A DNA stretch of 64,000 bases from a bacterium (lineage in GTDB: Bacteria; Verrucomicrobiota; Kiritimatiellia; CAIKKV01; CAITUY01), in the NCBI GenBank assembly GCA_037132275.1, contig JBAXPK010000007.1, positions 518 through 64,517 of the forward strand, in the 5' to 3' direction. Shown in pieces: positions 5,294 through 24,400 of this stretch. Below the pieces are notes generated by a model. It did not search any database, was not told the DNA's origin, and saw only the letters and a list, made by a program, of their open reading frames with translations. Both the position numbers and the translations under genes were made by a program. Position 1 is the stretch's first letter, and each line of letters begins with the position of its first letter.

Positions 5294-6244
5294 ATGAAGA
5301 ACAGGCAGTTTTATAATGGGATGTCGGTATTACTTGCCGTGGTTTCGCTTCTGGGCGCAGGCTGCGGTAAGCGGCAGACTGCGCCGGAGGCCCGGATCAC
5401 GGTTTCGGGTGCCTGGGCGCTTTACCCGATGATGGTGAAATGGGCGGAAGAATATAGGAAGTCACATCCCGGGATTCAGATCGATATTTCTGCAGGCGGA
5501 GCCGGAAAAGGGATGACGGATGCCTTATCAGGCGCCGCCGATATCGGCATGGTTTCACGGGATATCAATCCCTCCGAAGCGGGTAAGGGGGCATGGTGGG
5601 TGGCGGTGGTCAAGGATGCCGTGATTCCCGTCATGAATGCCTCAAACCCGAACGGCGGCATCCTCGCCAAACGGGGTCTCAAGAAAGAGGAATTTACCGC
5701 CATCTTTGTGAAGGGAAATGTTCAGGATTGGAGTTTTGCGGGCGGCACACCAACTCCGCTTCATGTTTATACTCGATCAGACGCCTGCGGCGCAGCGGAA
5801 ACCTGGGCCAAGTATCTTGGCGCCAAGCAGGAAGACTTGAAGGGAACCGCCGTTTACGGGGATCCCGGCGTGGCCGAAGCCGTGCGCAAAGACGTGTCAG
5901 GCATCGGGTTCAATAATCTGATTTTCGCCTATGACATCAAGAGCGGTCAACCCCTTCCGGGTATATGCGTCATCCCCATCGACAGCAATGGGAACGGCGC
6001 CGTGGATCCCGGGGAGGATTTCTATGGGACCCACAAGGCGGTCATGCAGGCAATTGCTACGGGGCGTTATCCCTCCCCGCCAGCCCGTGATCTGAATCTG
6101 GTGCATCATGGGCCCCCCCCGTCCGGACCTGTTGCCGATTTTATCAAGTGGGTGCTTGCGGAGGGGCAAGCGTTTGTATCCGAAGCCGGCTATATCGCCC
6201 TGCCCGCTGAAATCCTCAACAGCCAGAAGGCAAAGCTGAAATAG
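5294..6244 (+). CDS. pstS: PstS-family periplasmic oxyanion-binding lipoprotein (phosphate-binding protein homolog)
   Basis: Signal peptide plus lipobox (LLAVVSLLGAGCGK). Alignable to E. coli PstS: SGAWALYPMMVKWAEEY against TGAGATFPAPVYAKWADTY, and SAGGAGKGMTDALSGAADIGMVSRD against [22 protein letters not shown]. Contains a C8 tract at 6113-6120. Confidence 0.65.
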   Translation: MKNRQFYNGMSVLLAVVSLLGAGCGKRQTAPEARITVSGAWALYPMMVKWAEEYRKSHPGIQIDISAGGAGKGMTDALSGAADIGMVSRDINPSEAGKGAWWVAVVKDAVIPVMNASNPNGGILAKRGLKKEEFTAIFVKGNVQDWSFAGGTPTPLHVYTRSDACGAAETWAKYLGAKQEDLKGTAVYGDPGVAEAVRKDVSGIGFNNLIFAYDIKSGQPLPGICVIPIDSNGNGAVDPGEDFYGTHKAVMQAIATGRYPSPPARDLNLVHHGPPPSGPVADFIKWVLAEGQAFVSEAGYIALPAEILNSQKAKLK

Positions 6245-6247
6245 GCC

Positions 6248-7150
6248 ATGGATCGTGATTCCATACGACAGGGACTGGATTGCTGGGGCCGCCGAGGCAT
6301 GGTTGCGACGGTGGCGATGTGCATTTTACTCCTACTGCTTATGGCGATGGGCCTGCTGTGGAAATCCTGGCCCATTCTTAGCTCACATTCACTGGCAGGC
6401 CTGTTTCTTTCCAGCGTCTGGAAACCCCATGGAGGGCAGTTCGGATTTCTGGCCTTCATTCTGGGTTCCTTATGCATTACCGGAGTAGCGGTGCTGCTGG
6501 CCGCGCCGGTTTCGTTGTTAACGTCCATCTATCTGTCCGAATATGCCGGACGCCGGATCCGGGCGTTGATGTCGCCCCTGATCGATCTCCTGGCGGGCAT
6601 TCCCTCGGTGGTTTACGGGGTGTGGGGAGTGCTGGTGGTCGTTCCCCTGGTGAAAGATCATCTAGCGCCGGTATTCGGCCGATATTCATCCGGGTATTGC
6701 GTTCTTTCCGCCGGGGTGGTGCTGGCCATCATGATTTTGCCTGTCGTCATTCATGTGGGCCTGGATGTGTTGAAGTCCGTTCCCCAGGGGTTGCGCGAGG
6801 CCTCCCTGTCACTGGGCGCGAATCGGTGGGAAACGGTGAAGCATGTAGTATTGCGGCGTGCGGCGCCGGGCCTGTTGGCCGCCAATGTTTTAGGCGTGTC
6901 GCGGGCCTTTGGCGAGACGATGGCCGTTCTCATGGTGGCGGGGAACGTCGCCGTGACTCCGAAATCCGCATTCGATCCCGCCTACCCGCTACCCGCGCTC
7001 ATTGCCAACAACTACGGCGAGATGATGTCGATCCCGCAGTATGACTCCGCCCTGATGCTGGCGGCGCTCATGCTTTTCGTGGTGGTACTGGGTTTCAATT
7101 TATTGTCGCGCTGGGTTTTTGCCCGTATGGAGTTGCGCATTTCAGGATGA
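6248..7150 (+). CDS. pstC: Pst-type ABC transporter permease (PstC-like)
   Basis: Six-TM permease with the EAA-like loop (...LREASLSLGANRWETVKHVVLRRAAPGL...), positioned between pstS and pstA homologs. Confidence 0.65.
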   Translation: MDRDSIRQGLDCWGRRGMVATVAMCILLLLLMAMGLLWKSWPILSSHSLAGLFLSSVWKPHGGQFGFLAFILGSLCITGVAVLLAAPVSLLTSIYLSEYAGRRIRALMSPLIDLLAGIPSVVYGVWGVLVVVPLVKDHLAPVFGRYSSGYCVLSAGVVLAIMILPVVIHVGLDVLKSVPQGLREASLSLGANRWETVKHVVLRRAAPGLLAANVLGVSRAFGETMAVLMVAGNVAVTPKSAFDPAYPLPALIANNYGEMMSIPQYDSALMLAALMLFVVVLGFNLLSRWVFARMELRISG

Positions 7151-7154
7151 ACCC

Positions 7155-8003
7155 ATGAGAAAGCAGATTGAAGAAATTGCCGCCAAAATCCTGATGATCG
7201 GAGCCGCCGTGGTGGTGGCCGGGATGGTCGTTTTGATTCTCGGAACCGTGTTATGGCGCGGCCTCCCGGCGTTGAGTTGGGAAATGATCTCGCAGACTCC
7301 GTCCGGCGGTTACTATCTCGGAAAGGGCGGCGGCATTCTCAATGCCATCGTCGGGTCACTTTCGGTGGCCGGTGGCGCAACCCTGCTGTCGCTCGGCCTG
7401 GCTTTGCCAGTGGCGTTGAGCCTGAATGTCTATTTCAAGACCCATTCCCGACTGGCGGGTTGCGTCAGGGGCTCGTTGGATGTGCTGTGGGGTGTGCCCT
7501 CCATTGTCTATGGCGCCTTCGGGTTTGCGTTTATGCTTTGGCTCGGACTCCGCGCTTCCCTCCTGGGGGGGATTATCACCGTGGCTTTGATGATCCTCCC
7601 CATCATGATCCGGGCCATGGATGAAGTGATTCACATGGTTCCGCACGAGATGCTGGAAGCCTCCGATGCCCTGGGTGCCACCCGGTGGGAGGGCGCCTGG
7701 AAGGTAATCCTCCGGCAGGCGCTTCCCGGACTTGCCAGCGCGGCGCTGATCGCCTTCGGGCGGGGGATCGGGGATGCCGCCTCTGTTCTTTTCACGGCGG
7801 GATTTTCGGACCGGATTCCGATGTCACTTGCGGATCCTGCTGCGACCCTGCCGCTGGCCATATTCTTCCAGTTGGGTACCCCGTTCCCGGAGGTTCAGCA
7901 ACGGGGCTATGCTGCGGCGCTGATATTAACGGCCATCGTGCTGACGGCCAGCGCTCTGGCGCGTCTGGTCAGCCATCGGGCGGGACGGTTTGTAATTCGA
8001 TGA
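7155..8003 (+). CDS. pstA: Pst-type ABC transporter permease (PstA-like)
   Basis: ATG at 7155 lies 4 nt after the pstC stop; the longer 7119 start would overlap. TM-rich sequence with the EAA motif (EASDALGATRWEGAWKVILRQALPGL). Confidence 0.65.
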   Translation: MRKQIEEIAAKILMIGAAVVVAGMVVLILGTVLWRGLPALSWEMISQTPSGGYYLGKGGGILNAIVGSLSVAGGATLLSLGLALPVALSLNVYFKTHSRLAGCVRGSLDVLWGVPSIVYGAFGFAFMLWLGLRASLLGGIITVALMILPIMIRAMDEVIHMVPHEMLEASDALGATRWEGAWKVILRQALPGLASAALIAFGRGIGDAASVLFTAGFSDRIPMSLADPAATLPLAIFFQLGTPFPEVQQRGYAAALILTAIVLTASALARLVSHRAGRFVIR

Positions 8004-8013
8004 AGGACATACC

Positions 8014-8775
8014 ATGACAGCCAATACCCCTATTGAAGTGAAAGACCTGAATGTGCATTACGGCACGATCCATGCTTTGAAAAATATCCACGTTAGTATC
8101 CCCAATTGCCAGATCACGGCAGTCATCGGCCCCTCGGGGTGCGGTAAGTCTACCTTGTTGCGTTCGTTCAACCGCATGCTCGACACCATGGATGATGTGC
8201 GGGTCACAGGCGGGGTGCTGGTCGACGGTGAGAATATTTTTGCGGCCAATGCGGATGTGCCGCGTCTACGCCGCAAGATGGGACTGCTTTCTCAGCGGCC
8301 GTTTCTCCTGCCTATGTCGATCTATGACAATGTGGCCTACGGGCCGCGCATCCATGGGATCAGCCGCCATTCCGACCTGGATTGCACCGTGGAAAAATAC
8401 CTCCGGATGGCCAACATGTGGGATGAGGTCAAGGATCGTCTTCGCGAGCCCGCTGCAAAGCTGTCGATCGGTCAACAGCAACGGCTCTGCCTGGCGCGGG
8501 GCCTCGCTGTGGAACCCGAGATTATCCTGGCGGACGAGCCCACCTCGGCGCTGGACCCGATTTCAAGCCGTCACATTGAACAACAATTCCGAGAGTTACG
8601 GGCTGACTACACGCTGGTGATGGTGACCCATATTCTTCGGCAGGCCCGTCGCCTGGCCGACTATGTGCTTTTCATGTATCTGGGTGAACTCATCGAGCAC
8701 GGGCCGGCGGCCGAACTGTTTGAGAATCCCCGCGAGGAATTGACGAAGGATTATATCAAGGGAACGATCAGTTAG
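8014..8775 (+). CDS. pstB: Pst-type ABC transporter ATP-binding protein (PstB-like)
   Basis: Near full-length colinearity with E. coli PstB: Walker A AVIGPSGCGKSTLLR, PMSIYDNVAYG, LSIGQQQRLCLARGLA, ILADEPTSALDPIS and LFMYLGELIEHG. Length of 253 aa matches PstB rather than CysA. Confidence 0.8.
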   Translation: MTANTPIEVKDLNVHYGTIHALKNIHVSIPNCQITAVIGPSGCGKSTLLRSFNRMLDTMDDVRVTGGVLVDGENIFAANADVPRLRRKMGLLSQRPFLLPMSIYDNVAYGPRIHGISRHSDLDCTVEKYLRMANMWDEVKDRLREPAAKLSIGQQQRLCLARGLAVEPEIILADEPTSALDPISSRHIEQQFRELRADYTLVMVTHILRQARRLADYVLFMYLGELIEHGPAAELFENPREELTKDYIKGTIS

Positions 8776-9308: not shown

Positions 9309-10210
9309 CAATCCATTCCCTGACCCATTTGAAGCAACTGGAAGCCGAGAGCATTCATATCATGCGCGAGGTGGCCGCAGAATTCGAGCGGCCGGTCATG
9401 CTTTACTCGGTCGGGAAAGACTCATCGGTCATGGTGCGGCTGGCCCAGAAGGCCTTTTACCCCGGACGGATTCCCTTTCCACTGATGCATGTGGATACAG
9501 GTTTCAAATTCGGGGAGATGATTGAGTTCCGTGACCGGTTTGTGAAGGAGATCAAGGCGGATCTTATTGTGCATCAGCATGAAAAATCAGCCGACCTGTC
9601 GGTGAATCCCTTTGCCCTCGGAACCCAGAAGTGCTGTGCGATACTTAAGACGCAGGCTCTGGTGGAAGCCATACGCAAACATAAGTTTGACGCCGCTTTC
9701 GGGGGCGCCCGCCGCGAGGAGGAGAAATCGCGGGCCAAGGAGCGGGTGTTCTCCTTTCGGGACGAGCTCGGGCAGTGGGATCCCAAAAACCAGCGTCCGG
9801 AACTGTGGAGCCTCTATAATACCCGGGTCAACACAGGCGAATCCATCCGAGTATTCCCCATCTCCAACTGGACCGAGTTGGATGTCTGGCAATATATCTA
9901 CATGGAAAAGATTCCGGTGGTGCCCATGTACTTTGCGCAGGAGCGCGACATGATTGTGAGGGATGAGCAGTTGATTCCGTTCCAGGAAACCACGCCGCTC
10001 AAACCGGGCGAACACCCCTGCAAAGTGCTGAGTCGATTCCGCACCCTGGGCTGTTATCCCTGTACCGGGGCCATCCGGTCATCGGCGTCAACGGTGGCGG
10101 AAATCATCGAGGAAATGATGGTCGTACGCATCTCCGAACGTTCGACCCGCGTGATTGATCATGACGCCGAGGGCTCGATGGAAATGAAGAAACGGGAAGG
10201 GTATTTCTAG
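9305..10210 (+). CDS. cysD: Sulfate adenylyltransferase subunit 2 (CysD/NodP)
   Basis: Near-identical block structure to E. coli CysD: [38 protein letters not shown] (PP-loop SxGKDS), [22 protein letters not shown] and [15 protein letters not shown] overlap with cysC. Confidence 0.9.
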
Positions 10211-10211
10211 A

Positions 10212-12143
10212 ATGAATGCGATTGAGGCATTTCTGGCGGAGAATGAGAAGAAGGATCTGCTTCGGTTTTCGACGGCGGGCAGCATTGACGACGGCAAGTC
10301 AACCCTGATCGGCCGTTTACTGCACGACTCAAAGAATGTCTACGAGGATACGCTGGCGTCGATCAAAAAGGCGTCTCGTGAAAAAATGTCGGAGGAACAG
10401 ATCGACCTTGCCTTGCTCACTGACGGTCTTAAGGCAGAACGCGAGCAGGGGATCACCATTGACGTCGCCTACCGCTATTTTTCGACACCGCGCCGGAAAT
10501 TCATCATCGCCGACACGCCCGGACACGAGCAATACACCCGGAATATGGCGACCGGCGCCTCGACCGCCAATCTTTCGGTTGTGCTGGTGGATGCGCGTCA
10601 TGGCATCCTTCCCCAGACGCGGCGCCATGCGTTTATCGCCTCCCTGCTGGGGGTGCCGCACATGATTGTGGCCGTGAACAAAATGGATGCCGTGGACTAT
10701 CGGGAAGACGTCTTTCAGGCGATTCGCGACGAGTTCGCTGAGTTTGCCTCGAAGCTGGGCATCAAGGATCTGCGTTTCATTCCGCTGAGTGCCCTCAAGG
10801 GCGATAACGTCGTCCATCGCAGTGGAAACATGACCTGGTACCGGGGCGAAAGCCTGATGGAAATCCTGGAGAACGTCTACATCGGCAGCGACCATAATCT
10901 CGTGGATCTGCGGTTCCCCATCCAATATGTGGTGCGCCCGGATATGGGCTTCCGCGGCTATGCCGGAGTTGTCACCTCCGGTGTCATCCGTCGGGGGGAT
11001 GAGGTGTTGGCGCTCCCTTCGATGAAAGTCAGCCGGGTCAAATCGATTGTCACCTTTGATGGCGACGTGGAAGAGGCCTGTTCGCCCATGTCGGTAACGG
11101 TCACCCTGGAAGACGAGCGTGATATCAGCCGCGGGGAAATGCTGGTCCGTCCGCATAACCTTCCCAAAATGGACCGGCGTTTTGAAGGCATGGTGGTGTG
11201 GATGGGGGATGCCCCAATGGATCTGAATGCCAGCTATTTCATCAAGCACACCACCCGCCTGACCCGGTGCCGGGTGGACGAAATCCGTTACAAGGTGAAT
11301 GTGAACACCCTGGCCAGAGAGGCCATGACGGGACTCGCCTTGAATGACATTGGCCGGGTTGTCTTCACCGCCAATCAACCCCTGTTCAGTGATTCCTACG
11401 AGAAGAACCGGGGAACCGGCTCATTTATCCTGATTGACCCCGTGACCAACGCCACTGCGGCAGCCGGGATGATCATTGATCGCGAACCAGCGGAACAGCT
11501 TGTTTCCCGCATCACCCCCGGGGTAGGGGCGCACACGATGAGCCGGCATGGCCGCCAGATCGAGGCCGGGGAGCGGGTGGCGCGTTATGGGCAGAAGCCG
11601 GCGACCCTGTGGCTGACCGGTCTGGTGGGATCGGGAAAATCAAGTCTGGCTGGCGCGCTAGAGCGGAAGCTTTTCGACTTGGGCGCCGTCAGCGTTGTCC
11701 TCGATGGTTCGAATGTGCGGTCGGGCCTCAACCGTGAACTGGATTTCACGTCCGAGGGGATGGCCGAACATCTCCGCCGCGTCGCTGAGATGGCTCGGCT
11801 CCTGAACGATGCCGGGTTGGTGGTTATATGCGCCTTTGTTTCCCCTCATGAAAAGGTGCGCCGGCAGGTGGCTGAAATTATTGGAATCGACCGGTTTCTG
11901 GAAGTTCACGTGGATGCGCCCCTTGAGTGGTGCCAGGCTCACGACCACACTGGGTTCTATCAGCGGGCCGAGGTAGGCGAGGTGCGCAACGTGGCGGGCA
12001 TCAGTTTTCCTTATGAAGCGCCGACCACGCCCTCGCTCAGGGTGTCGACGCCGGATATGACGCCTGAAGGTGCTGTATCAATCGTCATGAACCTGCTGCG
12101 TAAACAAGGGATATTCCCGGTCGGTGCTCTCTCAAATGAGTGA
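10212..12143 (+). CDS. cysN: Bifunctional sulfate adenylyltransferase subunit 1 (GTPase) / APS kinase, NodQ-like
   Basis: N-terminal EF-Tu-like GTPase ([27 protein letters not shown]). C-terminal APS kinase ([33 protein letters not shown]). 643 aa. Confidence 0.85.
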
Positions 12144-12176: not shown

Positions 12177-12590
12177 TTGAAGATTCCAAACAGCGTGGAA
12201 CGCGTTCTTAAATTTGGCGTGGTCGGGGTCTTGACCTTCGCGCTGGATCTTATTCTTCTTTATGTTTGTATCGACTGGTTGGAATGGAATTACATTATCG
12301 CGACGGGAATCGCGTTCACAATGGCCGTTTCTGTAAACTATTATGGCGACCGGCGCTGGGTGTTCAAAGGCACTCTCAGGTCCATCCGGGCGGGGTATGT
12401 TATTTTCATGGTCATCGGATGCGTGGGCGCGGCCATTGCCATGGTCGGCATGTCCGTCCTCGTGGGGGTTTTCCACATTCATTATTTTGCATCGCGCATC
12501 GCCATTGCGAGCCTGGTGGGCCTGTGGAACTATTTCATGAACCTCTATGTAAACTTTCAGGTGACAGGCAAGCACGGGGAGGCTTCCTGA
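12177..12590 (+). CDS. GtrA-family membrane protein
   Basis: TTG start. FGVVGVLTFALDLILLYVCIDWLEWNYIIATGIAFTMAVSVNYYGDRRWVF is typical of GtrA-like four-TM proteins associated with glycan translocation. Confidence 0.55.
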   Translation: MKIPNSVERVLKFGVVGVLTFALDLILLYVCIDWLEWNYIIATGIAFTMAVSVNYYGDRRWVFKGTLRSIRAGYVIFMVIGCVGAAIAMVGMSVLVGVFHIHYFASRIAIASLVGLWNYFMNLYVNFQVTGKHGEAS

Positions 12591-12633
12591 ATCTGTTTCC
12601 CGTCCCCGCAGCCCGGGTGTGCCGGCTTGCGAG

Positions 12634-12664
12634 CATCTAACGTGAGCGTTGTTGTTTCCTAACA
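12634..12664 (+). promoter_or_regulatory. Bipartite conserved motif CATCTAACG-N10-TGTTTCCTAACA (copy 1)
   Basis: Sits 42 nt upstream of the ATG at 12707. An identical bipartite arrangement with the same 10-nt spacer recurs at 12922-12952. Confidence 0.4.
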
Positions 12665-12706
12665 TAGGGTGTCTATCGTCTTTCCAAGTTAAGGAGGAAT
12701 GACGAT

Positions 12707-12895
12707 ATGAAATGTTTAAAATGCAACGACGAAGTAGATATTAAGAAGAACGAAATCCCGCCACGTTGGTACGGGCATTACGAGAACGCGAAACTCGCGA
12801 AGCTCATGTGCGTGGAATGCCTTGTGACCCATAAAGAGATATGGGATTTGGTACGGACGGGGTGTGGGGGTGGTAAGCAAGCCCTTTCGGCTTGA
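12707..12895 (+). CDS. Small zinc-ribbon-like protein (62 aa, CxxC...CxxC)
   Basis: Strong Shine-Dalgarno AAGGAGGA 7 nt upstream. Cys pairs at C3/C6 and C35/C38 (MKCLKCN...MCVECLV). Flanked by the conserved motif pair. Confidence 0.4.
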   Translation: MKCLKCNDEVDIKKNEIPPRWYGHYENAKLAKLMCVECLVTHKEIWDLVRTGCGGGKQALSA

Positions 12896-12921
12896 CTGTT
12901 CTCGTCCACCCTGCTGACGAA

Positions 12922-12952
12922 CATCTAACGAGCGGGTCGCTGTTTCCTAACA
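12922..12952 (+). promoter_or_regulatory. Bipartite conserved motif CATCTAACG-N10-TGTTTCCTAACA (copy 2)
   Basis: Same 9-mer and 12-mer with the same spacing as copy 1. It lies 51 nt upstream of the ATG at 13004. Confidence 0.4.
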
Positions 12953-13003
12953 GGGTTGGCTTATGATGTGGTTTTTGATCGTTTACAAACGGAGCAACAT
13001 ATC

Positions 13004-13330
13004 ATGGCAAAGAAGGCAGTGAAAAGCGCGGTGACGACGCGTGCAACGGTAAAACCGCAACTACCCCGGCGTAAGCGGGTAACATTCCGGTTTCAGGCGA
13101 AAGAAGGAGCCGATGTGCGTGTGGCGGGGAGTTTTAACAACTGGGATCCCAAGGCCCGGCTCCTGAACCCGGCGAAGGGAAACGGCGAGTACGCCAGTGC
13201 GATTCTGCTTCCGGCGGGACGTCACGAATACAAGTTCATCGTGGATGGCCAATGGCTTGGTGATCCGGTCTGTGCTGAGAAGGTTCCGGACGGGCACGGC
13301 GCGATGAATAGCGTGGTTGTGGTCGAGTAG
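13004..13330 (+). CDS. Small CBM48/AMPK-beta-like glycogen-binding-domain protein
   Basis: The ORF opens at TTG 12956, but an ATG at 13004 fits the upstream motif spacing. VTFRFQAKEGADVRVAGSFNNWDP...EYKFIVDGQWLGDP is the hallmark of CBM48/E-set N-terminal domains. Confidence 0.5.
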   Translation: MAKKAVKSAVTTRATVKPQLPRRKRVTFRFQAKEGADVRVAGSFNNWDPKARLLNPAKGNGEYASAILLPAGRHEYKFIVDGQWLGDPVCAEKVPDGHGAMNSVVVVE

Positions 13331-13379
13331 GTGGGTGCGGTATCGCCCCGGGTACTCCGATAACGGGGCAACCAAAACG

Positions 13380-14318
13380 ATGACACGATTTCCTGGCGTA
13401 TTATTGTTGTCTTTCCTGGGCATGACGGCTACCGCCCTGGCCGGTGCCGACACAAATTTTTTCTCTGAGGTCGCCGGGCGATTTCACCCGTCCAAGCCGT
13501 CTGCGGTCATGAATTACGACGTGAGCTACGCTCTGATGAGTATTCGTCTCAAGCGCGTCGCCAGCGCCACGATGACCGCCACCGAGGGGGTGTGGTGCGG
13601 TAGCGTCTCCAACTCGTCGAGCCCCGCCTGCATGATCGATTTTTTTGTCGCCACGCCCCGGGGCGACGAGGGCGAGATGAGTCTATATAAGCGCACGGTC
13701 TCCGTGCTGACCCTACCGGATTTGAAACTCATTACGTATGTGAAGCAAAACGATGAATTCATCAAGCCGTTCTTCGGGAAAGGGCGGCGGATGAAATATA
13801 CCGAGGAGTATAACTTCGAGCCCGCCGCTATGACCTACCGCCGCCACGATTTTGTGACCGGCACGGTGGAAACGAATCTCCAGGGCATGGCCGACCTGGC
13901 TAGGCAGAGCACGGAAGTCGCCGATGTGATCCGTGCCTTGTATGCGTCCTACCAGGGGGCCCCGGCGGTCGGTCGGCCTGTGGCGGACAAGATTCATTTT
14001 AACGTGGATGGCGCCGTCCGGACGTTCGATCTCAAGATGAAGAAGGGACGGATATCAGTCCCTGTTCTGTCTCGGAAACTCATGGCGTTGTATGCCGACA
14101 TCCAGCCGGGGGCGGGATGTACCGACCGGAATGAAAGCTTTTCCATGTGGTGCGTGCCGTTCAAGGAACTCTCTCGTGAAACGAATGATCCGAAACTGCA
14201 GCAACTTGCCGAAACGAGTCTGGAGTGCTCCATGGTGCCCTTATCAGGAGAGTACGCTTTGTTCCTGGGCAGTTTGCAGTGCACGCTCGCCACCATTGGC
14301 ACCCATTCCTGGGATTAA
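13380..14318 (+). CDS. Secreted hypothetical protein
   Basis: ATG at 13380 gives a signal peptide MTRFPGVLLLSFLGMTATALAGA. No recognisable domain. Confidence 0.4.
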   Translation: MTRFPGVLLLSFLGMTATALAGADTNFFSEVAGRFHPSKPSAVMNYDVSYALMSIRLKRVASATMTATEGVWCGSVSNSSSPACMIDFFVATPRGDEGEMSLYKRTVSVLTLPDLKLITYVKQNDEFIKPFFGKGRRMKYTEEYNFEPAAMTYRRHDFVTGTVETNLQGMADLARQSTEVADVIRALYASYQGAPAVGRPVADKIHFNVDGAVRTFDLKMKKGRISVPVLSRKLMALYADIQPGAGCTDRNESFSMWCVPFKELSRETNDPKLQQLAETSLECSMVPLSGEYALFLGSLQCTLATIGTHSWD

Positions 14319-14407
14319 GCTCAACCCTAGGGGCCGGGCGCGATGCCGGGGCAGTACTGACTAGACCCCAATGAAATCCTAATGGTTGTCAAACATTGCT
14401 CTAACGA

Positions 14408-16810
14408 TTGAATGTTATAATTCACATCCATATGGAATCAGCTACGGGTACAATGACAGGCGGCGATGATCTGGCAAGGCTCCGCAGCCTGTTGCAGATG
14501 GGTGAAGGCGGTGACCGCCTGGCTGAGGCGCTGCCATTCGGCATTGGCGATGCGACGGCAGGCGCCGAGAACGAACTGCAGACGGTGGTAACTGGTCCTC
14601 GCGAACAGGTAGATCTGGCCCGTGCGGTGGAGGAATCGAGCTACTTCAAGAACCTCATGCGGCGCGCCGCCGTGGGGGAAGCCTCCAAGAGCCTGGTTCG
14701 GGACATTAAGGATTTCCTGGCGGACAACCGGGAGTCGGCTTGGGAGAACAGTTGGGTGTACTTCCCGGCAGACCTCATGACGCCTTATGCGCAGTCCGTG
14801 TTCGAGGGGGATCTGTATGCCGACAAACAGGCGCCGGGCGTCCGCCGATCAGATGCAGGCCGTTTTGAGATTCAACGCAACGGGATCCGTTGCGTTCGCA
14901 TTCCCGTAAGTTATCTCCTGAAGCTGGCACTGGCCGATGCCATCAGCTTCGGTCGGGAACCGCACCCGGTGGTTCGCAGCACAGGCGAGAGGCTGATGCG
15001 TCATTTCCTCAACGACAACACCTCTCCCGAGACGCTGTCGTTCCACACAGTGGGTTCATCGTCCGAGCCGGGATTGGGCCGTGCGCTGGCAGAGGAGACG
15101 CTGAGGCGTTTTCTGCTGGTGCAGTTTCTGACCATGTACGCGAACGAGAAGTTCGAGCTGCGCGCAAGGGGGCAGCAGACGCTGGTCTGCCTCGCGCCGC
15201 ACACCCCCCGGCGCCAGAAGCAGTTGAATGAAATGGTGGCGGACTCGTTCTATCGCGACCTCTTCATGAGTCCATGCCTGTCAGGGTGGGATCGCGGGGA
15301 GGACAAGTACCATTATATGATCCTGTGCCACGAGGTGCTTTCGCGCAGCCGGCTCAACACCATGGCAAAGCTGCGCGAGTGTGGCATTCTTTCACGGGAT
15401 TTGGTGACCCTGCCGACGGTGTCCAACACGAGCCTGGCCAACAACGGCACGCATATCACCCTGGGCAGCCGCCGCCTTACCGCCTTGATGGCCCCCGGCG
15501 GGGGCAATGGGTTCACGGCGCAGGACGAAAAACGGACGGGCGACCTCGTTGTAAAGATTGTTGAACATTTTCTCCCCCTCTTTGTCGGGACTTACACAGC
15601 GGCGCCGCACCGGTTGGATTTTCGCGACTTTCATCCGGAGTCAGTGTTGGGATTTCTGCCGCACGAACTCGACTTCACCCATTTGCGCATGTTGTGGCGG
15701 CGCTGGCAGGGCAAGGCCGATCTCAAATGCCTGGGGGTCACGCTGACGCCCTTCGGGCCGCGTGCGCTGGATCGTTTCCTGGCCACGGTGCTCGGGTTAC
15801 GCGGCGACTGGGTGCCGGATCAGCGCCTGATTGACTACCTTGTCTCGCCCCTGAGCACGGACCACAGTCCGGCCCTTGACGGGACGATAGGCAATGATGA
15901 GCGGCTCAAGCGGGATCTGGCCCAGATGGGTGTGTTTGACCCACGGATGTCTTTCTACTCCCTGTATCGCCAGCGGATTTTCTCCAAGATGGGATTCTGC
16001 GGGTTTGAGGGGCGCCACTACAGCCAGTTCGCGAGCATCACCCGGGACATGGCTGCGGCCACCGATATGCAGCGGCTGGTTACCGCGTTGGCCTACCAGT
16101 ATGTGTTGACTGGCGCCGTGACCCATGTAGACATCCCGGACACGCCTGAAGTCGAGAGCGAACGGCGCCAGGTCTTTTTCGGGACGGCCATCGGTATCCC
16201 GACGTTTTTTGTCAGAACTCAGACCTCGAACCGGTTTCTCCAGCATATCCTGGGACGAGCGGCACGAACCCGTGATAGTCACCGGTATTCGGGGCGCACC
16301 CGCGTTTATAACGACGAATACCGCCGGGCACTAGTGGCAACCCTGGAACATGACGGTGCGGGGCTGATCGAATCCCTCGGGCTCGGTGAGACCGTGAGCG
16401 ACCTGAAGCGGAGAATCGAGCCGGCCGGAAAAGGATCGGCGCTGGACGCCCTCCTCACGGGAATTCTGGACGAGGCGGGAACCTCATCACCGCTGAAAGC
16501 GTCCGCAGGGACATTCAACGAGGCGGCGGAACGCTACTACCGGGACACCCTGCTGAAGAATTTTGTGGCTGAAGCGCTTGATTTGTTCGCCCGCGACCTG
16601 AAGGAACTCGCAAGCCGCTCGTCTGGCGGTGGGGAGGAGGCGAAGGCCCTATTGTCGGCGCTAAACGGGGAGGATCCGACTTCCTTCCTGGAGGCGGTAC
16701 GGGGCACGGTGCTGGAAGGGAAAGTCTCCCAGTCCGTTCTGGTCAAGCTCATCAGCCTCGTACTGCTGGTCATCCGCCACCACTGTGAAGAGAACGGAGG
16801 CAAACCATGA
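14408..16810 (+). CDS. Large (about 800 aa) cytoplasmic protein of unknown function
   Basis: Long ORF with coding-like composition, no signal peptide or TM, and no P-loop or other motif I can recognise. Start uncertain (ATG 14408, 14432 or 14453). Its stop overlaps the psd start (ATGA at 16807-16810). Confidence 0.5.
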   Translation: MNVIIHIHMESATGTMTGGDDLARLRSLLQMGEGGDRLAEALPFGIGDATAGAENELQTVVTGPREQVDLARAVEESSYFKNLMRRAAVGEASKSLVRDIKDFLADNRESAWENSWVYFPADLMTPYAQSVFEGDLYADKQAPGVRRSDAGRFEIQRNGIRCVRIPVSYLLKLALADAISFGREPHPVVRSTGERLMRHFLNDNTSPETLSFHTVGSSSEPGLGRALAEETLRRFLLVQFLTMYANEKFELRARGQQTLVCLAPHTPRRQKQLNEMVADSFYRDLFMSPCLSGWDRGEDKYHYMILCHEVLSRSRLNTMAKLRECGILSRDLVTLPTVSNTSLANNGTHITLGSRRLTALMAPGGGNGFTAQDEKRTGDLVVKIVEHFLPLFVGTYTAAPHRLDFRDFHPESVLGFLPHELDFTHLRMLWRRWQGKADLKCLGVTLTPFGPRALDRFLATVLGLRGDWVPDQRLIDYLVSPLSTDHSPALDGTIGNDERLKRDLAQMGVFDPRMSFYSLYRQRIFSKMGFCGFEGRHYSQFASITRDMAAATDMQRLVTALAYQYVLTGAVTHVDIPDTPEVESERRQVFFGTAIGIPTFFVRTQTSNRFLQHILGRAARTRDSHRYSGRTRVYNDEYRRALVATLEHDGAGLIESLGLGETVSDLKRRIEPAGKGSALDALLTGILDEAGTSSPLKASAGTFNEAAERYYRDTLLKNFVAEALDLFARDLKELASRSSGGGEEAKALLSALNGEDPTSFLEAVRGTVLEGKVSQSVLVKLISLVLLVIRHHCEENGGKP

Positions 16811-17823
16811 TGGCACACCAGTATGTGGAACGGCGGAGTGCGTGCGCCGTCGGCGAGACGTTTTTTGGCGACCCGGTTGTCTCTTTTTTGTATTCACGGA
16901 TCCGTGAGGAGTCAGGGTGGTTGTACCGGGCGCTGACCTCATCCCGGCTGACCAACCTGCTGGGGATATTGCAGTTCGATGTCCGTCCCCGCGATCCCGC
17001 CCGTATGCGTTGGCGGCTGGCATCGGCGTGTGGAGTGGACTTTTCGGAATGTGCCGACCCGTTGGAGACTCTCGATACGGCGCGCAAGGTCTTTGAGCGC
17101 AAGATTCGCTATTGGGAGTGCAGGCCCATGGATCCCGATCCCGGGGCGATCGTATCCCCTTCGGATGCCCGTCTCTTGGTGGGTTCGTTCCAAAAGGTTT
17201 CCGGTTTGTTGCTCAAAGAAAAATTCTTCCGCTTCGAGGAATTGTTGGGCGATGATAAACTCGGCTGGCAGGAATCGTTCCGCGGCGGGGATTATGCCGT
17301 GTTACGACTGACGCCCGACAAGTACCATCGCAACCATGCGCCCGTGACCGGGGTGGTGAGGGATATCTACGAAGTGGACGGGGTCTTCCAGTCCTGCCAC
17401 CCCGCTGTCGTCATTGCCCAGGCCACGCCCTATTCCAAGAACCGGCGGACGGTTACGATCATTGACACCGATGTGCCGGGCGGAACACAAGCCGGGCTGG
17501 TGGCGATGGTCGAGGTGGTGGCGCTGATGATTGGCGAGATTGTGCAGTATTACTGTCAGGAGCGATACGATGCCCCCTTGGCAGTGTATAAAGGATTGCA
17601 CCTCTTGCGAGGATGCCCAAAGAGTCTGTTCCGCCCCGGCAGTTCCACGGTTGTGCTGGTGTTTCAACCGGGGCGCATCCGGTTTAGCGAGGATCTTGTG
17701 GCAAACCTCCGGCGTACCGATGTGAGGAGTTGTTACAGCGATGGAGAAGGAGGCGCCGTGGTGGAAACCGATGTGGCAGTCAGGTCAACCATTGCCCGCG
17801 TCGTTCCGGGAGGCCAGGCATGA
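16807..17823 (+). CDS. psd: Phosphatidylserine decarboxylase proenzyme (pyruvoyl-dependent)
   Basis: LTPDKYHRNHAPVTGVVRDIYEVDG against E. coli [25 protein letters not shown]. A GSST-type self-cleavage site (FRPGSSTVVLVF against KLGSTVINLF). 338 aa. Confidence 0.7.
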   Translation: MMAHQYVERRSACAVGETFFGDPVVSFLYSRIREESGWLYRALTSSRLTNLLGILQFDVRPRDPARMRWRLASACGVDFSECADPLETLDTARKVFERKIRYWECRPMDPDPGAIVSPSDARLLVGSFQKVSGLLLKEKFFRFEELLGDDKLGWQESFRGGDYAVLRLTPDKYHRNHAPVTGVVRDIYEVDGVFQSCHPAVVIAQATPYSKNRRTVTIIDTDVPGGTQAGLVAMVEVVALMIGEIVQYYCQERYDAPLAVYKGLHLLRGCPKSLFRPGSSTVVLVFQPGRIRFSEDLVANLRRTDVRSCYSDGEGGAVVETDVAVRSTIARVVPGGQA

Positions 17824-18923
17824 GCGCCGCCATCGTCGTGGGAATCATGACGCTCTGCCTCGGGGTATTGTTTTTCTGGGCGTTTCGCGTCCTGCCCGGC
17901 GAGCCGTGGCAAATTCTGGCGGTATGGCCGCGCCAGAAGGAGCCTGATGGCACATGGCGCGGTACGAACCTGACTTACTATGGTCTATTCAATGGTCTAG
18001 GATTGGCGGTGGCGGTGGCGGTGACGGTGTTTCTGCTGGGAACCATGCGAATGCCGCTGCCCTATGTGGCGTGGTGTGTCTTTGTTCTCCTGGCGGTCAC
18101 GGTTCCTGCTTCCAAAATTGTCAATCGCATGGTGGAGGGACATTGGCACGGGTTCACCATTGGAGGGGCCTCATTCGTCGGGATGGTGGCGGGCCCCTGG
18201 TTGGTCTGGGGTATTTCCCGCCTGACTCTGTCAGCGGAGGAAGGGGCGATGGCGACGGTGTCTGTGATGGGTGCCATAGCGTGTGCCTATGCGTTGGGTG
18301 AAGGCATCGGGCGGTTAGCCTGCATCAGTTTCGGCTGTTGTTACGGGCGACCGCTGGCGGACTGTCCAGCCTGGCTTTCAAAATTATTCACTCACGGGGC
18401 TTTTGTCTTTGAGGGACGCTTAAAAAAATCCTCTTACGAACACAGGTATGAAGGCAAACGCCTGATTCCTGTGCAGGCCCTGACCGCCATCATCTCCAGC
18501 ATGGCCGGGCTCGTCGGCATGGCGGTATTCCTGGGCGGGCATCCGGTTCTAGCCTATGTGATGCCGGTTGTCGCTACGCAGGTGTGGAGGTTTGTGTCGG
18601 AATTCCTGCGGGCGGATTACCGGGGGGCGGGGCGGATTACTGCCTACCAGGGCATGGCCCTTGCGGGAGCGGCCTATACGGTGGCGCTTGGCCTTCTGTG
18701 GTCCGGCACGCTGGCGCTTACTCCCGATGTGGCTCGCGGCCTGGCGTTGCTATGGACTCCTGGCGCGATTCTATTAATTGAAGCCGTCGCCCTCTTTGTT
18801 GCCATTCGCATGGGCCTCAGTACAGTCACAACGGCCAGAATTCATTTCGGCCTCAGGCAGGATGGCGTGCCACCCGTGTCCCCTGCCTTGCGAACATCTG
18901 ACGGCTCGCTAACTCAGGACTAA
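17820..18923 (+). CDS. Divergent Lgt-family (prolipoprotein diacylglyceryl transferase-like) membrane protein
   Basis: ATGA overlap with psd. Multi-TM. WHGFTIGGASFVGMVAG against Lgt W.GGMSFHGGLIG. GEGIGRLACISFGCCYGRP against Lgt GAGRLGNFINGELWGR, with GN/NGE replaced by AC/GCC. WRFVSEFLRADYRG against Lgt FRIIVEFFRQPD. Confidence 0.5.
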   Translation: MSAAIVVGIMTLCLGVLFFWAFRVLPGEPWQILAVWPRQKEPDGTWRGTNLTYYGLFNGLGLAVAVAVTVFLLGTMRMPLPYVAWCVFVLLAVTVPASKIVNRMVEGHWHGFTIGGASFVGMVAGPWLVWGISRLTLSAEEGAMATVSVMGAIACAYALGEGIGRLACISFGCCYGRPLADCPAWLSKLFTHGAFVFEGRLKKSSYEHRYEGKRLIPVQALTAIISSMAGLVGMAVFLGGHPVLAYVMPVVATQVWRFVSEFLRADYRGAGRITAYQGMALAGAAYTVALGLLWSGTLALTPDVARGLALLWTPGAILLIEAVALFVAIRMGLSTVTTARIHFGLRQDGVPPVSPALRTSDGSLTQD

Positions 18924-18950: not shown

Positions 18951-19703
18951 ATGGCCGGTTCCCATAACCCTATCATGTCGGCGGGAGTCCTTCTCCTGAC
19001 TCTCTGCCTCCTTCCTGTCCACGCGGCCCATCCTCGCTTCTCTATCCCATCCCCAATCGCGCAGCCCTCTCCACTCACGAATAGGCCATCATTAATACCT
19101 TCCCCTTCCTTCTCTCGCTATTCCATCATCCTGACCCGGATGCCATTTGGAAACGAGGCGCCCTCTGTCGCCACTGCGGCCCGGGCCGAGGCCGCGGACA
19201 TTCCGGCTGAAAGTTTCTCCAAGACCCTTACGCTGTGCGCGATTACCCGAAGCCATGACACCGGCAAAGTCCAGGTTGGGCTTGTGGACCATGAGACCCG
19301 AAAAAGTTACTTCCTTGGCGAGGGTGATAAAGAAGATGGCCTGGAACTGAAGGAGGCCGATTATGTGGAGGAGAAGGCGTTACTCGCGATGGGGGAGAAG
19401 GAAGTGTGGTTGACGATGAAGGCGGGGGCGATGAAGACCCCTACGGGTGTCCGCAATCCATTCGGTTTTGAGAGCGCAACGTCTTCTCCACCGCCAAGCC
19501 CCGATGAGTCCGGAACCATGACCTTAGCGGCTATGAGCGGGGAGGCGGAGCCTGCCGCCGACAGTTTTAAGAAGCTCGTTATGAGTTCTCAAATGGAACT
19601 GCTTCGCGCCCGTGGCGCCAAGGGCCCGCCCTTGCCCATGGCCCTCACGCCAGAAATGGATGATCAACTCGTCAAGGAAGGCGTCCTCGCCCAGACGGAG
19701 TAG
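18951..19703 (+). CDS. Secreted Pro/Ser-rich hypothetical protein
   Basis: A signal-peptide-like N-terminus (alternative start MSAGVLLLTLCLLPVHAA at 18975). Low-complexity PSP-rich region. Flanked on both sides by GACTAAT motifs. Confidence 0.4.
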   Translation: MAGSHNPIMSAGVLLLTLCLLPVHAAHPRFSIPSPIAQPSPLTNRPSLIPSPSFSRYSIILTRMPFGNEAPSVATAARAEAADIPAESFSKTLTLCAITRSHDTGKVQVGLVDHETRKSYFLGEGDKEDGLELKEADYVEEKALLAMGEKEVWLTMKAGAMKTPTGVRNPFGFESATSSPPPSPDESGTMTLAAMSGEAEPAADSFKKLVMSSQMELLRARGAKGPPLPMALTPEMDDQLVKEGVLAQTE

Positions 19704-19783: not shown

Positions 19784-19843
19784 GCATAGTCTGACCCAGA
19801 TTATATCCCGGGCGCTGTTCCCGTTCGCAGGGACGACTATTCT

Positions 19844-20542
19844 ATGGCTGTTGCTCAGAAACATATACTGATTGTTGAAGACGAGGATGATATCCTTGAG
19901 TTGGAGCGCTACAATCTGACGCGGGAGGGCTTCAGCGTGGCCGCAGTTTCGCGCGGCGAGGATACCCTCAAGGCGGTGACCCAGAAGAGGCCGGATCTCA
20001 TTCTCCTGGATCTCATGCTGCCGGGTATGAACGGGCTTGAAGTGTGCCAGAAACTCAAAGCAGATCCCTCAACCGCCGACATCCCGATCATCATGGTCAC
20101 AGCCAAAGGCGAGGAATCGGACATCATTGTGGGGCTGGAACTCGGGGCGGACGATTATGTGAACAAGCCCTTCAGCATCAAAGTGCTCATTTCCCGCATC
20201 CGTGTTGCGCTGCGCCGTCAGCCGATCAAAGCTTATGACCAGAAGCATGGCCTGCGGGTCGGTGACGTGGAGATCAATCCCAGCCGTTTTCAGGTGAAGA
20301 TCAAGGGAAAACCCATTGTGGGGCTCACGGTGACAGAGTTCCACCTGCTTCACTTTCTTGCCAGCCGTTCAGGCCGTGTCATGAACCGGCAACAGATCCT
20401 GGATGCTGTGCGCGGTGAGGATATTGCCGTGACTGAGCGGGCGGTGGATGTCCAGATGGTCGGCTTACGCAAGAAGCTCGGCTCCGCCGCAGATTACATT
20501 GAGGCCGTGCGTGGAGTGGGATACCGCTTCAGGGACGGCTGA
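19844..20542 (+). CDS. OmpR/PhoB-family response regulator (orphan, no adjacent kinase)
   Basis: REC domain (ILIVEDEDDI...LILLDLMLPGMNG...IIMVTAKGEE). C-terminal winged helix (...GLTVTEFHLLHFLASRSGRVMNRQQILDAV...VGYRFRD). Confidence 0.85.
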   Translation: MAVAQKHILIVEDEDDILELERYNLTREGFSVAAVSRGEDTLKAVTQKRPDLILLDLMLPGMNGLEVCQKLKADPSTADIPIIMVTAKGEESDIIVGLELGADDYVNKPFSIKVLISRIRVALRRQPIKAYDQKHGLRVGDVEINPSRFQVKIKGKPIVGLTVTEFHLLHFLASRSGRVMNRQQILDAVRGEDIAVTERAVDVQMVGLRKKLGSAADYIEAVRGVGYRFRDG

Positions 20543-23170: not shown

Positions 23171-24400
23171 ATGACAAACAGATTTTGGGCACAAACCAAC
23201 ATCTTCACAACACTGGCGATCACAAGCGGCCTTATGCTGGCATTAGCCGGAGGATGCAAGCCGTCTGAGCCGTCTCTTCCAACTTCAAGAAACGCAGGAC
23301 AGGCCGGACCCCTCGGATATGGCTGGGTTTTCGCGTGTGCGATCACCAATGATGAGATAGACCTGAGTGACCGCTGTCTGGCCCAGAAAGCGGTGGCTCT
23401 TGCCTATCTAGCCGAAGGTAATGTCGAAATGGCCCAGGCGTGTGCGTTGCAGATCGAGGATTACAGCCGGGGAATGGTACTCGCCGCCATCGCGGAGTGG
23501 CTTGTCGCGCATAACGAGTCTGAGAAGGCCGAGGCATTGCTTCCGGCGCTGGAAGCCAGTGGATTTGTGGCGAAGGATTGGCAGCGTGAGTACATTGGTT
23601 CGGCCATCATACGGGTTCAAGCCCTATTGGGTAAGGAGCAAGTAGTGGTCAAGAACGCCGCAAAATTCAGCGACCACTCCCGTCTTGGGGGTGATGTCGC
23701 GGCGAGTCTGGCACTCGTGCTGGCGCGAACTGGCCGCGTGGATGAAGCCACGGGCATTCTCGGAAATCTGACGCAGACGAACGGGCTTAATACCGCAGAT
23801 TCAAGCGTGAAAGGGTACTTGGATATGGCCGCGTTGGGGCGACTTGACCGGGGTGCGGTGACGCAGGCGCTCGTCAAGGCCTGGGAAGCGGCGGGAACCA
23901 TCCGGCCGCCCCGGCGGTGGGATCTGCAGTTAGAGGTGATTGATGCCATGACCAAACAGGGGATGTCCAAGGACGCCCTCGAACATCTTGCCCTGACATC
24001 CTCCAACATCACGATCGCCGTTAAACTTCCCCCGGAGGTTCACTCCGCGATGCTCTGCCAGTGCGCGCTGTTATGGAAAAAACTGGGGCAACCACAGAAC
24101 GGTGAGGCTCTGCGCGGCGAGGCAGAAAAAGCCATTGCTCGAAAAATGGAAGTGATCTTCCAGCCCGGTGCCTACGCGATCATCGCAACGATGTACGCCG
24201 AAGCCGGCGATCTAGCACAGGCCAGAACGTGGTATGGCCGCGCCCTGGACGTGGCCGCCGGTCTTGAGAACCGCCGACCCAGGGCCCAGGCTGGCGTGGA
24301 AGTGTGTGAGTCGTTGGCAAGACATAAAGAGGTTATTGATGCGGGCATCCAAAAGAGGCTTGAACGCCTCAACGGGACATTTGATGTCGCGCAACCCTAA
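23171..24400 (+). CDS. Helical-repeat (TPR-like) lipoprotein
   Basis: Signal plus lipobox (LMLALAGGCKP). Alpha-helical Ala/Leu-rich repeats. The 3' end overlaps the downstream receptor start by 17 nt. Confidence 0.45.
   Translation: MTNRFWAQTNIFTTLAITSGLMLALAGGCKPSEPSLPTSRNAGQAGPLGYGWVFACAITNDEIDLSDRCLAQKAVALAYLAEGNVEMAQACALQIEDYSRGMVLAAIAEWLVAHNESEKAEALLPALEASGFVAKDWQREYIGSAIIRVQALLGKEQVVVKNAAKFSDHSRLGGDVAASLALVLARTGRVDEATGILGNLTQTNGLNTADSSVKGYLDMAALGRLDRGAVTQALVKAWEAAGTIRPPRRWDLQLEVIDAMTKQGMSKDALEHLALTSSNITIAVKLPPEVHSAMLCQCALLWKKLGQPQNGEALRGEAEKAIARKMEVIFQPGAYAIIATMYAEAGDLAQARTWYGRALDVAAGLENRRPRAQAGVEVCESLARHKEVIDAGIQKRLERLNGTFDVAQP

Follow-up and report, generated by a model that had tools for sequence, protein, structure and literature searches.

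The stretch analysed here, called the window throughout, comprises 64,000 nucleotides (64 kb) of contig JBAXPK010000007.1 from a bacterium of the Kiritimatiellia, and the subject of this work is a group of three co-oriented genes on its forward strand, referred to below as the triad. The first gene (14453..16810) encodes a large protein of 785 residues, the second (16807..17823) a 338-residue proenzyme of the phosphatidylserine decarboxylase (PSD) family of pyruvoyl decarboxylases (Pfam PF02666), and the third (17820..18923) a 367-residue divergent membrane transferase with about nine transmembrane helices and the fold of Lgt, the prolipoprotein diacylglyceryl transferase. At both junctions the stop codon of one gene overlaps the start codon of the next as ATGA (16807-16810 and 17820-17823). 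An earlier account drawn up without database searches, hereafter the sequence-only reading, had described this arrangement, and the open reading frames (ORFs) as well as the two overlaps were confirmed. It had also assigned 800 residues to the large protein; that ORF is present, its longest version opening at TTG 14408, but the true start is probably ATG 14453 and the length 785 residues, because a TATAAT hexamer at 14416-14421 and a direct repeat at 14390-14405 mark the 5' part of the longer frame as promoter. A database protein (P0001) is identical to the product translated from ATG 14453.

The triad recurs as a unit well outside this lineage. A scan with one genome per species retrieved at least 549 relatives of the large protein, from which 80 loci were kept; 63 of these, with at least 2.7 kb of sequence downstream of the large gene, are informative for gene order. 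In 60/63 the PSD-like and Lgt-like genes follow the large gene on the same strand. They are directly adjacent to each other in 55/63, and the other five carry either a fused PHP-phosphoesterase/GT4-glycosyltransferase gene or a phoB-histidine kinase-phoU block as an insertion. The loci that conserve the order span Victivallales-like bacteria, Desulfobacterota, Brocadia and Acidobacteriota, and relatives of the large protein were found in Geobacter, Syntrophus, Desulfobacterales, anammox bacteria, Acidobacteriota and bacteria of the Planctomycetota-Verrucomicrobiota-Chlamydiota (PVC) group. The triad is abundant in Desulfobacterales. No further gene is conserved across all the related loci. The arrangement is well beyond chance, and the triad is a conserved functional unit. 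The sequence-only reading had asked whether the neighbourhood is conserved, and had held that its proposal would fall if the genes did not travel together or if the large ORF belonged to a familiar family; the unit was found to be kept across several phyla, and the large ORF lies outside the annotated families.

The third protein of the triad is recognisable as a relative of Lgt, but not as Lgt itself. Its match to the Pfam family LGT (PF01790) is marginal (27.7 bits against a cut-off of 24.9), and its score against the NCBIfam equivalog, 23 bits against 334, falls well short. Searches of the PDB with phmmer and with a family profile did not recover Escherichia coli Lgt (5AZB); the membrane fold was recognised by structure comparison. 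Relative to E. coli Lgt (PDB 5AZB/5AZC), the protein is 15% identical and has one extra N-terminal transmembrane helix. In the alignment, the E. coli signature G142-RLGNFINGELW-G154 is paired with G164-RLACISFGCCY-G176, which lies within the altered segment GEGIGRLACISFGCCYGRP (18297-18353). The residues equivalent to R143 and G154 are retained, whereas N146 is replaced by C168, N149 by F171 and E151 by C173. Cysteines 168, 173 and 174 are invariant in 30 members of the family, at positions where Lgt has Asn, Glu and Leu. The replacement of GN..NGE by AC..GCC reported in the sequence-only reading is essentially correct by this alignment. In E. coli Lgt, N146, N149 and E151 form part of the network that recognises phosphatidylglycerol (PG), and the substitutions E151A and E151Q inactivate the enzyme (Mao et al. 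2016). Possible roles for the three cysteines include a covalent S-diacylglyceryl intermediate, metal binding and a redox switch.

The other two Lgt blocks differ in their fate. The segment W-R257-FVS-E261-FL-R264-AD (18585-18626) is retained, as the sequence-only reading had noted under the form RF..EF.R.D; W256-R257-FVS-E261-FL-R264 is invariant and has the same spacing as R239-x3-E243-x2-R246 of E. coli Lgt, a correspondence matched by eye, beyond the extent of the hhalign alignment. R143, G154 and the R239-E243-R246 network were proposed as the centre of diacylglyceryl transfer by Mao et al. (2016), who likewise proposed the HGGL motif, with H103, as the site of the lipobox peptide. The segment that the sequence-only reading had given as W.GG.SFHGG reads GGASFVG (18162-18182) in the window; the GGASF part stands, and the His, equivalent to H103, is in fact a Val. 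Furthermore, the distribution of charge across the membrane is reversed. In 30 members, the loops homologous to the periplasmic head and arms of Lgt carry on average 17.3 Lys and Arg residues and those of the opposite face 1.9, whereas E. coli Lgt, with its active site facing the periplasm, has the opposite bias. Under the positive-inside rule, this bias predicts a cytoplasmic catalytic face for the Lgt-like enzyme. Its acceptor would be a small molecule instead of a lipobox protein.

A direct comparison with the housekeeping enzyme is provided by one locus (L023), from a Candidatus Brocadia metagenome-assembled genome, where a canonical lgt at 4199-5026 on the reverse strand, which aligns with E. 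coli Lgt across 288 residues at 31% identity, stands roughly 6 kb away from the Lgt-like gene. A tblastn search with E. coli Lgt detected none of the Lgt-like genes, although it found this canonical copy. With the canonical gene coexisting 6 kb away, the housekeeping role in the Brocadia genome does not fall to the Lgt-like gene. The view of the sequence-only reading that the third gene is not the housekeeping Lgt is upheld by this coexistence, by the equivalog score and by the altered signature.

The second protein is readily placed in Pfam PS_Dcarbxylase (PF02666; E 2e-35, 122.7 bits), but it fails every NCBIfam PSD equivalog cut-off, the best score being 120.3 bits against 371. It carries the catalytic Asp motif SPSDARL (17155-17175), the His motif YHRNHAPVTG (17323-17352) and the self-cleavage site PG/SST (17635-17652); 68 orthologues all keep SPSDA, YHRNH and PGSST, and the alignment with the beta chain of E. 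coli PSD spans the catalytic Asp and His motifs. The YHR-H-P-G core and the GSST site had been recognised in the sequence-only reading, and its assignment of the protein as a pyruvoyl decarboxylase is consistent with the retained residues. E. coli Psd (PDB 6L06/7CNW) shares the PF02666 domain, the Asp and His motifs and the G-S-S/T site of self-cleavage that yields the pyruvoyl cofactor. In contrast to Psd, the PSD-like protein has a conserved N-terminal HQY.ER extension and lies below all the PSD equivalog cut-offs. Like Psd, it probably acts on a terminal alpha-amino acid bound to a lipid; its substrate would not be phosphatidylserine but a phosphorus-free lipid with a gamma-glutamyl (or cysteinyl) headgroup.

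The large protein, for which the sequence-only reading had found no motif that it could place, was placed by structure comparison. At least 2894 homologues were found, and the family is tightly conserved, with 52-58% identity between the PVC-group lineage of the window and Geobacter, Desulfosarcina, Syntrophus, Brocadia or Acidobacteriota. The protein has no match in Pfam or NCBIfam, and 27 family members compared with Pfam at E values up to 10 gave none, including GCS2, Glu_cys_ligase and Pup_ligase. A PDB profile search with the family found nothing, and an hhalign comparison with E. coli GshA was not significant. The family profile searched against 1.84 billion representative proteins gave 875 matches, of which the best 150 are the family itself or its fragments, with no bridge to a known family. 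The structure predicted with AlphaFold2 (mean predicted local distance difference test score, pLDDT, 74.8) falls, by fold comparison, in the glutamate-cysteine ligase (GCL)/glutamine synthetase (GS) fold. In ligases of this fold, ATP activates the gamma-carboxyl group of glutamate, which is then transferred to an amine. The family keeps, without variation, three candidate motifs characteristic of this fold, namely G-A-E54-N-E56 (14555-14581), N-N-G-T-H349 (15440-15466) and F-E534-G-R536 (16001-16024). Their residues E54, E56, H349, E534 and R536 lie on predicted strands and were matched by eye to the metal- and ATP-binding residues of the G-x-E-x-E, His and E-x-R type, two of the motifs being in low-confidence segments. 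The large protein is thus, according to the predicted model, the founder of a family outside Pfam and NCBIfam with the fold of ATP-dependent gamma-glutamyl-amine ligases.

With GshA, GshAB, YbdK/GCS2, PafA/Dop and glutamine synthetase, the large protein shares the predicted fold, but no detectable sequence similarity. It is about 300-400 residues larger than these relatives, owing to highly conserved inserts that are poorly modelled by AlphaFold2 and to a C-terminal helical domain. The best-conserved stretches (residues 310-345 and 406-537, encoded at 15335-15442 and 15623-16018) are in fact the worst modelled, at pLDDT below 50; they include LSRS.LN..AKLRE.GI..R.LV.LP.VSN.SLANNGTH and FHPE..LGFLPHELDFTHLRM.WRRWK.KA. 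Folding of these stretches may require a partner, a membrane or a substrate; alternatively, they may form a new insert domain. The final helix (LVKLISLVLLVI, 16739-16774) is hydrophobic, a character that is conserved, and might serve as a membrane anchor for the soluble ligase.

The region upstream of the triad resembles a promoter. A TATAAT -10 hexamer at 14416..14421 lacks a TTGACA-like -35 element, and a sigma-70 scan found no -35/-10 pair at the operon promoter, which fits an activator-dependent promoter. At the place of the -35 element, 10 bp before the -10 hexamer, lies a direct repeat of the form CAAAC-N6-CTAAC with an 11-bp period (14390..14405), which resembles a Pho box. In PhoB-dependent promoters, the PhoB site replaces the -35 element ahead of the -10 hexamer. 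The repeat is the sole exact match to CMAACA-N5-CTAAC across the window, and its motif is also found upstream in three close relatives (L002, L004 and L005). Among the related loci, 48/77 carry a repeat of the type [G/T]T[A/C/T]AC-N6-TT[A/C/T]AC (at most one mismatch) in the 300 bp that precede the large gene, the corresponding rates being 16% for shuffled sequences and 3.9% for coding controls; it is on the gene strand in 45 of the 48 positive loci. Of 64 exact sites in 1.16 Mb, 27 lie within 450 bp upstream of a large gene. The same repeat, at times in tandem, precedes pstS in 3/6 loci and about half of the genes for the PHP-GT4 fusion. A box of the E. coli type (CTGTCAT-N4-CTGTCAT) is not enriched upstream; the TTHAC-type repeat is enriched instead. 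In the isolate Citrifermentans bremense R1 (L049), a second exact copy (GTAACCGACGTTTCAC) is located 42 bp ahead of the PSD-like gene.

The gene content around the triad points in the same direction. A phosphate transporter of the ATP-binding cassette type, pstS-pstC-pstA-pstB, is encoded at 5348..8775 on the forward strand (Pfam PBP_like_2, two BPD_transp_1 and ABC_tran; PstB TIGR00972, 331 bits, with PstS-family matches), and a PhoB-like response regulator (Pfam Response_reg and Trans_reg_C) is encoded directly downstream of the operon at 19844..20542, on the same strand. The best NCBIfam model for this regulator is PhoB TIGR02154, at 237.6 bits, under the cut-off of 296. Among the 80 related loci, pst or phoU genes are present in the flanks of 20, a regulator at least 40% identical to that of the window stands beside the triad in 22, and either pst/phoU or a PhoB-like regulator is found within 8 kb in 29. 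In Citrifermentans bremense R1 (L049:10193-16925), the large gene is separated from the PSD-like/Lgt-like pair by phoB, a histidine kinase gene and phoU. This Pho setting, with pstSCAB, the PhoB-like regulator and the upstream repeat, had been overlooked in the sequence-only reading. These sequence features place the operon in a Pho-regulon context, and control by PhoB is predicted from them.

A recurrent neighbour of the triad is a protein of about 811 residues that combines a PHP phosphoesterase with a GT4 glycosyltransferase, present in 25/80 loci (e.g., L052:2797-5232, reverse strand); in some loci (e.g., L060:13657-16038) it sits between the PSD-like and Lgt-like genes. The PHP part was assigned by eye from its H-x-H start, since Pfam recognised only the GT4 domains. 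The fusion is a candidate one-protein analogue of PlcP plus Agt and, by that analogy, would make the glucuronosyl lipids that accompany the cysteine lipids discussed below. It does not occur in the window, where only weak GT4 matches were found, at 45380 and 52546. A Zn-dependent phospholipase C is encoded in 13/80 of the related loci. In 18/80, from Geobacteraceae and others, a small membrane protein of about 170-180 residues follows directly after the Lgt-like gene (e.g., L014:12346-12861); a counterpart of 180 residues (L081:10715-11257) is annotated as DUF2062, while the Geobacteraceae representative has no Pfam match. The small membrane protein is often followed by the Zn-dependent phospholipase C, and a role as flippase or accessory protein is possible.

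A candidate product for the triad is available from lipid chemistry. Under phosphate limitation, Desulfatibacillum alkenivorans exchanges phosphatidylethanolamine (PE), PG and cardiolipin almost wholly for two classes of lipids, glucuronosyl glycerolipids and sulfur-containing aminolipids tentatively named N-butyramide cysteine glycerols (BACys) (Ding et al. 2024, PNAS, PMC11181052). BACys are induced only under phosphate limitation, together with the glucuronosyl lipids; their headgroup ion is C7H13O3N2S+ (m/z 205.064); and their core lipids, namely diacylglycerol, mixed acyl/ether and diether forms, are shared with the remaining polar lipids, PE and PG among them. The work is chemical, and genes are neither named nor proposed; no published gene assignment for BACys was found in the literature searched to mid-2026. 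Gamma-Glu-Cys minus CO2 is C7H14N2O3S, with [M-H]+ = 205.0641, equal to the formula of the BACys headgroup ion. The 4-aminobutanamide on cysteine is a decarboxylated gamma-glutamyl group, so that a ligase, a decarboxylase and an S-diacylglyceryl transferase together account for the composition. Consequently, we propose, with a probability of roughly 55%, that the triad is a Pho-regulated operon that makes a lipid of the BACys class from phospholipid. The broader statement, that the operon is Pho-linked and makes some phosphorus-free lipid, is clearly more secure and can be held with good confidence. Of the options listed in the sequence-only reading, that of an unusual aminolipid fits the enzyme set, the Pho context and the formula match.

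In the proposed pathway, the Lgt-like enzyme, with its catalytic face in the cytoplasm, would transfer the whole diradylglyceryl group from PG, or from another phospholipid, to the thiol of free cysteine or of gamma-Glu-Cys, forming a thioether lipid and releasing glycerol phosphate, from which the phosphate could be recovered. The large ATP-dependent ligase would join the gamma-carboxyl group of glutamate to the cysteine amine, as in glutamate-cysteine ligase, and the PSD-like pyruvoyl enzyme would remove the alpha-carboxyl from the terminal H3N+-CH(COO-) group to leave the 4-aminobutanamide. A pyruvoyl decarboxylase requires a free alpha-amino acid end, and the glutamyl end of gamma-Glu-Cys supplies one that is similar to the serine of phosphatidylserine. 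The order of the steps is uncertain; decarboxylation could come first, on S-diradylglyceryl-cysteine, and would give a gamma-Glu-cysteamine thioether of the same formula. The product would then be either N-(4-aminobutanoyl)-S-(diradylglyceryl)-cysteine or its isomer S-diradylglyceryl-gamma-glutamyl-cysteamine. If PG donates its diradylglyceryl group intact, the cores that BACys share with PE and PG would also be explained. We infer all the substrates, the step order, the membrane orientation, the control by PhoB and what the product is; gene order with its conservation, the fold assignments, the residues kept and lost, the Pho neighbours with the upstream repeat, and the formula match are observed. 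For this enzymology in full, in which an inverted Lgt-family enzyme with a small-molecule thiol acceptor, a GCL-fold ligase and a PSD-family decarboxylase convert phospholipid into the thioether aminolipid with recycling of the phosphate, the odds are about even.

Several points weigh against the assignment of the triad to BACys. The ligase call depends on a structure predicted with moderate confidence (pLDDT 74.8), in which the surroundings of the His and E-x-R motifs are poorly modelled (pLDDT below 50 at residues 310-345 and 507-537), and no sequence method ties the large protein to GshA or to the Pfam ligase families. For the Lgt-like protein, the orientation is predicted from charge counts. 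The Pho-box label is given to the upstream repeat by analogy with PhoB and PhoP boxes of other bacteria; the repeat was seen at just three of the six pstS promoters, and the counts are not independent, because the loci are phylogenetically related. On the chemical side, the structure of BACys is tentative, being derived from tandem mass spectrometry (MS2) only, and the atom that links the headgroup to the glycerol is not given in the parts of the paper used here (PMC11181052). The connection between the triad and BACys rests on the formula match and on taxonomy, Desulfobacterales being rich in the triad; BACys were reported from Desulfatibacillum, and the window comes from a PVC-group lineage. 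Furthermore, no protein named Desulfatibacillum appeared among the best 120 matches listed with either the general or the Desulfobacterales-specific profile, and cluster look-ups identified none by name.

Since the genomic context and the predicted folds would apply equally to any phosphorus-free lipid, a Pho-regulated operon for a product other than BACys has to be weighed, for instance a diacylglyceryl amino-acid lipid with an O- or N-linkage, or a thioether that bears another gamma-glutamylated headgroup, with the transferase, ligase and decarboxylase in the same roles. The specific link to BACys is one of formula and taxonomy only, and the three invariant cysteines of the Lgt-like protein show a chemistry unlike that of classical Lgt. 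Such a product is nevertheless unlikely, as BACys are the sole lipid reported from phosphate starvation that needs exactly an amide ligase, a decarboxylase and a cysteine link, and literature searches gave no other orphan lipid of matching composition. The synthesis of plasmalogens or ether lipids, betaine-lipid synthesis and variants of lipoprotein N-acylation were also considered and dropped, as none of them requires the enzyme set of the triad.

Quite improbable, in turn, is the idea that the Lgt-like protein acts as a lipoprotein diacylglyceryl transferase specific to starvation and uses a donor other than PG, with the ligase and the decarboxylase serving some other role in starvation, such as the formation of a small thiol or a polyamine-like compound. 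The Lgt fold and the catalytic arginines are kept, the changed residues (N146, E151) are those that recognise PG, and PG nearly vanishes in phosphate-starved Desulfatibacillum, so that a classical Lgt would lack its donor. Against this, the H103 of HGGL, proposed by Mao et al. (2016) to belong to the peptide site, is lost; the charge bias predicts a cytoplasmic catalytic face, away from the exported prolipoproteins; and the tight, coupled association with two soluble enzymes across phyla is left unexplained. The alternative lipoprotein lipidation route entertained in the sequence-only reading is not supported, for the same reasons, one of the soluble partners being, by its fold, ATP-dependent. 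Still less credible is the reading in which ordinary housekeeping psd and lgt genes lie behind an unrelated conserved gene, in a Pho neighbourhood by coincidence. Public annotation does name the third protein a prolipoprotein diacylglyceryl transferase, and the Pfam PSD and LGT families are matched; the equivalog scores, however (120 against 371 and 23 against 334 bits), are far below their cut-offs, the Lgt signature and HGGL are altered at invariant positions, and the E. coli Lgt query misses the Lgt-like genes while finding the canonical lgt 6 kb off in the Brocadia locus. The order kept in 60/63 loci across phyla, the ATGA coupling and the enrichment of the upstream repeat are likewise not what a chance grouping would give. 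The housekeeping reading was rejected on the grounds of the equivalog scores and the coexisting canonical lgt.

Phospholipid replacement of this kind has well-known counterparts. The remodelling of lipids under phosphate starvation is established for PlcP/Agt (glycolipids), BtaA/BtaB (the betaine lipid diacylglyceryl-trimethylhomoserine, DGTS), OlsB/OlsA (ornithine lipid) and the synthesis of sulfoquinovosyl diacylglycerol. The BACys proposal shares with these systems the logic of a Pho-linked replacement of phospholipids by phosphorus-free lipids, and the PlcP/Agt-like phosphoesterase-glycosyltransferase fusion is itself a frequent neighbour of the triad. In contrast to the triad, none of them involves an Lgt-type transferase, a GCL-fold ligase, a pyruvoyl decarboxylase or a thioether lipid. 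Literature searches found no described system that combines the three activities, in line with the statement of the sequence-only reading that no system of this composition is known. Each protein of the triad belongs to a known superfamily yet lies outside its characterised families, as judged from the signature, HGGL motif and predicted orientation of the Lgt-like protein, from the PSD equivalogs and from the GCL/GS sequence families. The physiological category is therefore well known, whereas the enzymology would be new.

If the proposal holds, the triad supplies the genes for BACys, an orphan lipid class that replaces phospholipids almost fully in a phosphate-starved sulfate reducer. We know of no Lgt-family enzyme with a non-protein acceptor; the Lgt-like protein would be the first, possibly with an inverted topology. 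The large protein would represent a new, highly conserved family of GCL-fold ligases outside Pfam, and PSD chemistry would be extended to a phosphorus-free lipid. The capacity for BACys would be widespread (at least 549 representative genomes), pointing to an overlooked strategy of sulfur and nitrogen for phosphorus in anoxic environments, and the triad could serve as a marker to map phosphorus sparing in sediments, aquifers, digesters and anammox reactors. S-diacylglyceryl-cysteine is the core of bacterial lipoproteins that is active on Toll-like receptor 2 (TLR2), and free lipids of the S-diacylglyceryl-cysteine type could, given this core, have immunological relevance.

The remaining genes of the region are ordered, from upstream, as arylsulfotransferase-like, sulfotransferase, pstS, pstC, pstA, pstB, cysC, cysD, cysN-cysC and GtrA-like, followed by a CBM48 gene, a gene for a 333-residue protein, the triad, a gene for a 250-residue protein and the PhoB-like regulator. 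The 250-residue protein (18951..19703, forward strand) begins 28 bp past the Lgt-like gene and has a hydrophobic, signal-peptide-like N-terminus; it has no Pfam or NCBIfam match and stands beside the triad in none of the 80 related loci. It is a candidate for a fourth operon member restricted to this lineage, and a terminator-like hairpin is found downstream of it at 19816-19835. On the other side, directly 5' of the operon promoter, the gene for the 333-residue protein (13317..14318, forward strand) encodes a hydrophobic N-terminus and has no family match in Pfam or NCBIfam. It is found upstream of the triad in L001, L002 and L004 with 59-91% identity, a position kept in the closest relatives only. 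The interval between cysNC and the operon (12177-14318) holds this gene together with those for the GtrA-like membrane protein and a carbohydrate-binding protein of the CBM48/AMPK type; L001 also has the GtrA-like and CBM48 genes, and L002 the CBM48 gene.

The sulfur genes flank the phosphate transporter on both sides, with the arylsulfotransferase-like and sulfotransferase genes before pstSCAB (2056-5280) and cysC, cysD and the fused cysN-cysC after it (8787-12143). With both cysC and the cysN-cysC fusion, two copies of adenosine 5'-phosphosulfate (APS) kinase are present. A supply of 3'-phosphoadenosine 5'-phosphosulfate (PAPS) and sulfotransferases in a Pho neighbourhood suggests sulfated, phosphorus-free molecules under phosphate starvation, or the provision of sulfur for the cysteine lipid. 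The longest pstS ORF (TTG 4628, 538 residues, 4628-6244) overlaps the sulfotransferase ORF (4156-5280); its start is probably near 5348, because the PBP domain begins at residue 251 of the longest ORF. Beyond the PhoB-like regulator, the segment 20903-32868 encodes a 694-residue protein with a signal-peptide-like N-terminus, a 409-residue protein, a TonB-dependent receptor (24234-27614), two ExbB/TolQ-like proteins, a TPR protein and a DUF3450 protein, which may together form an uptake system for phosphate starvation.

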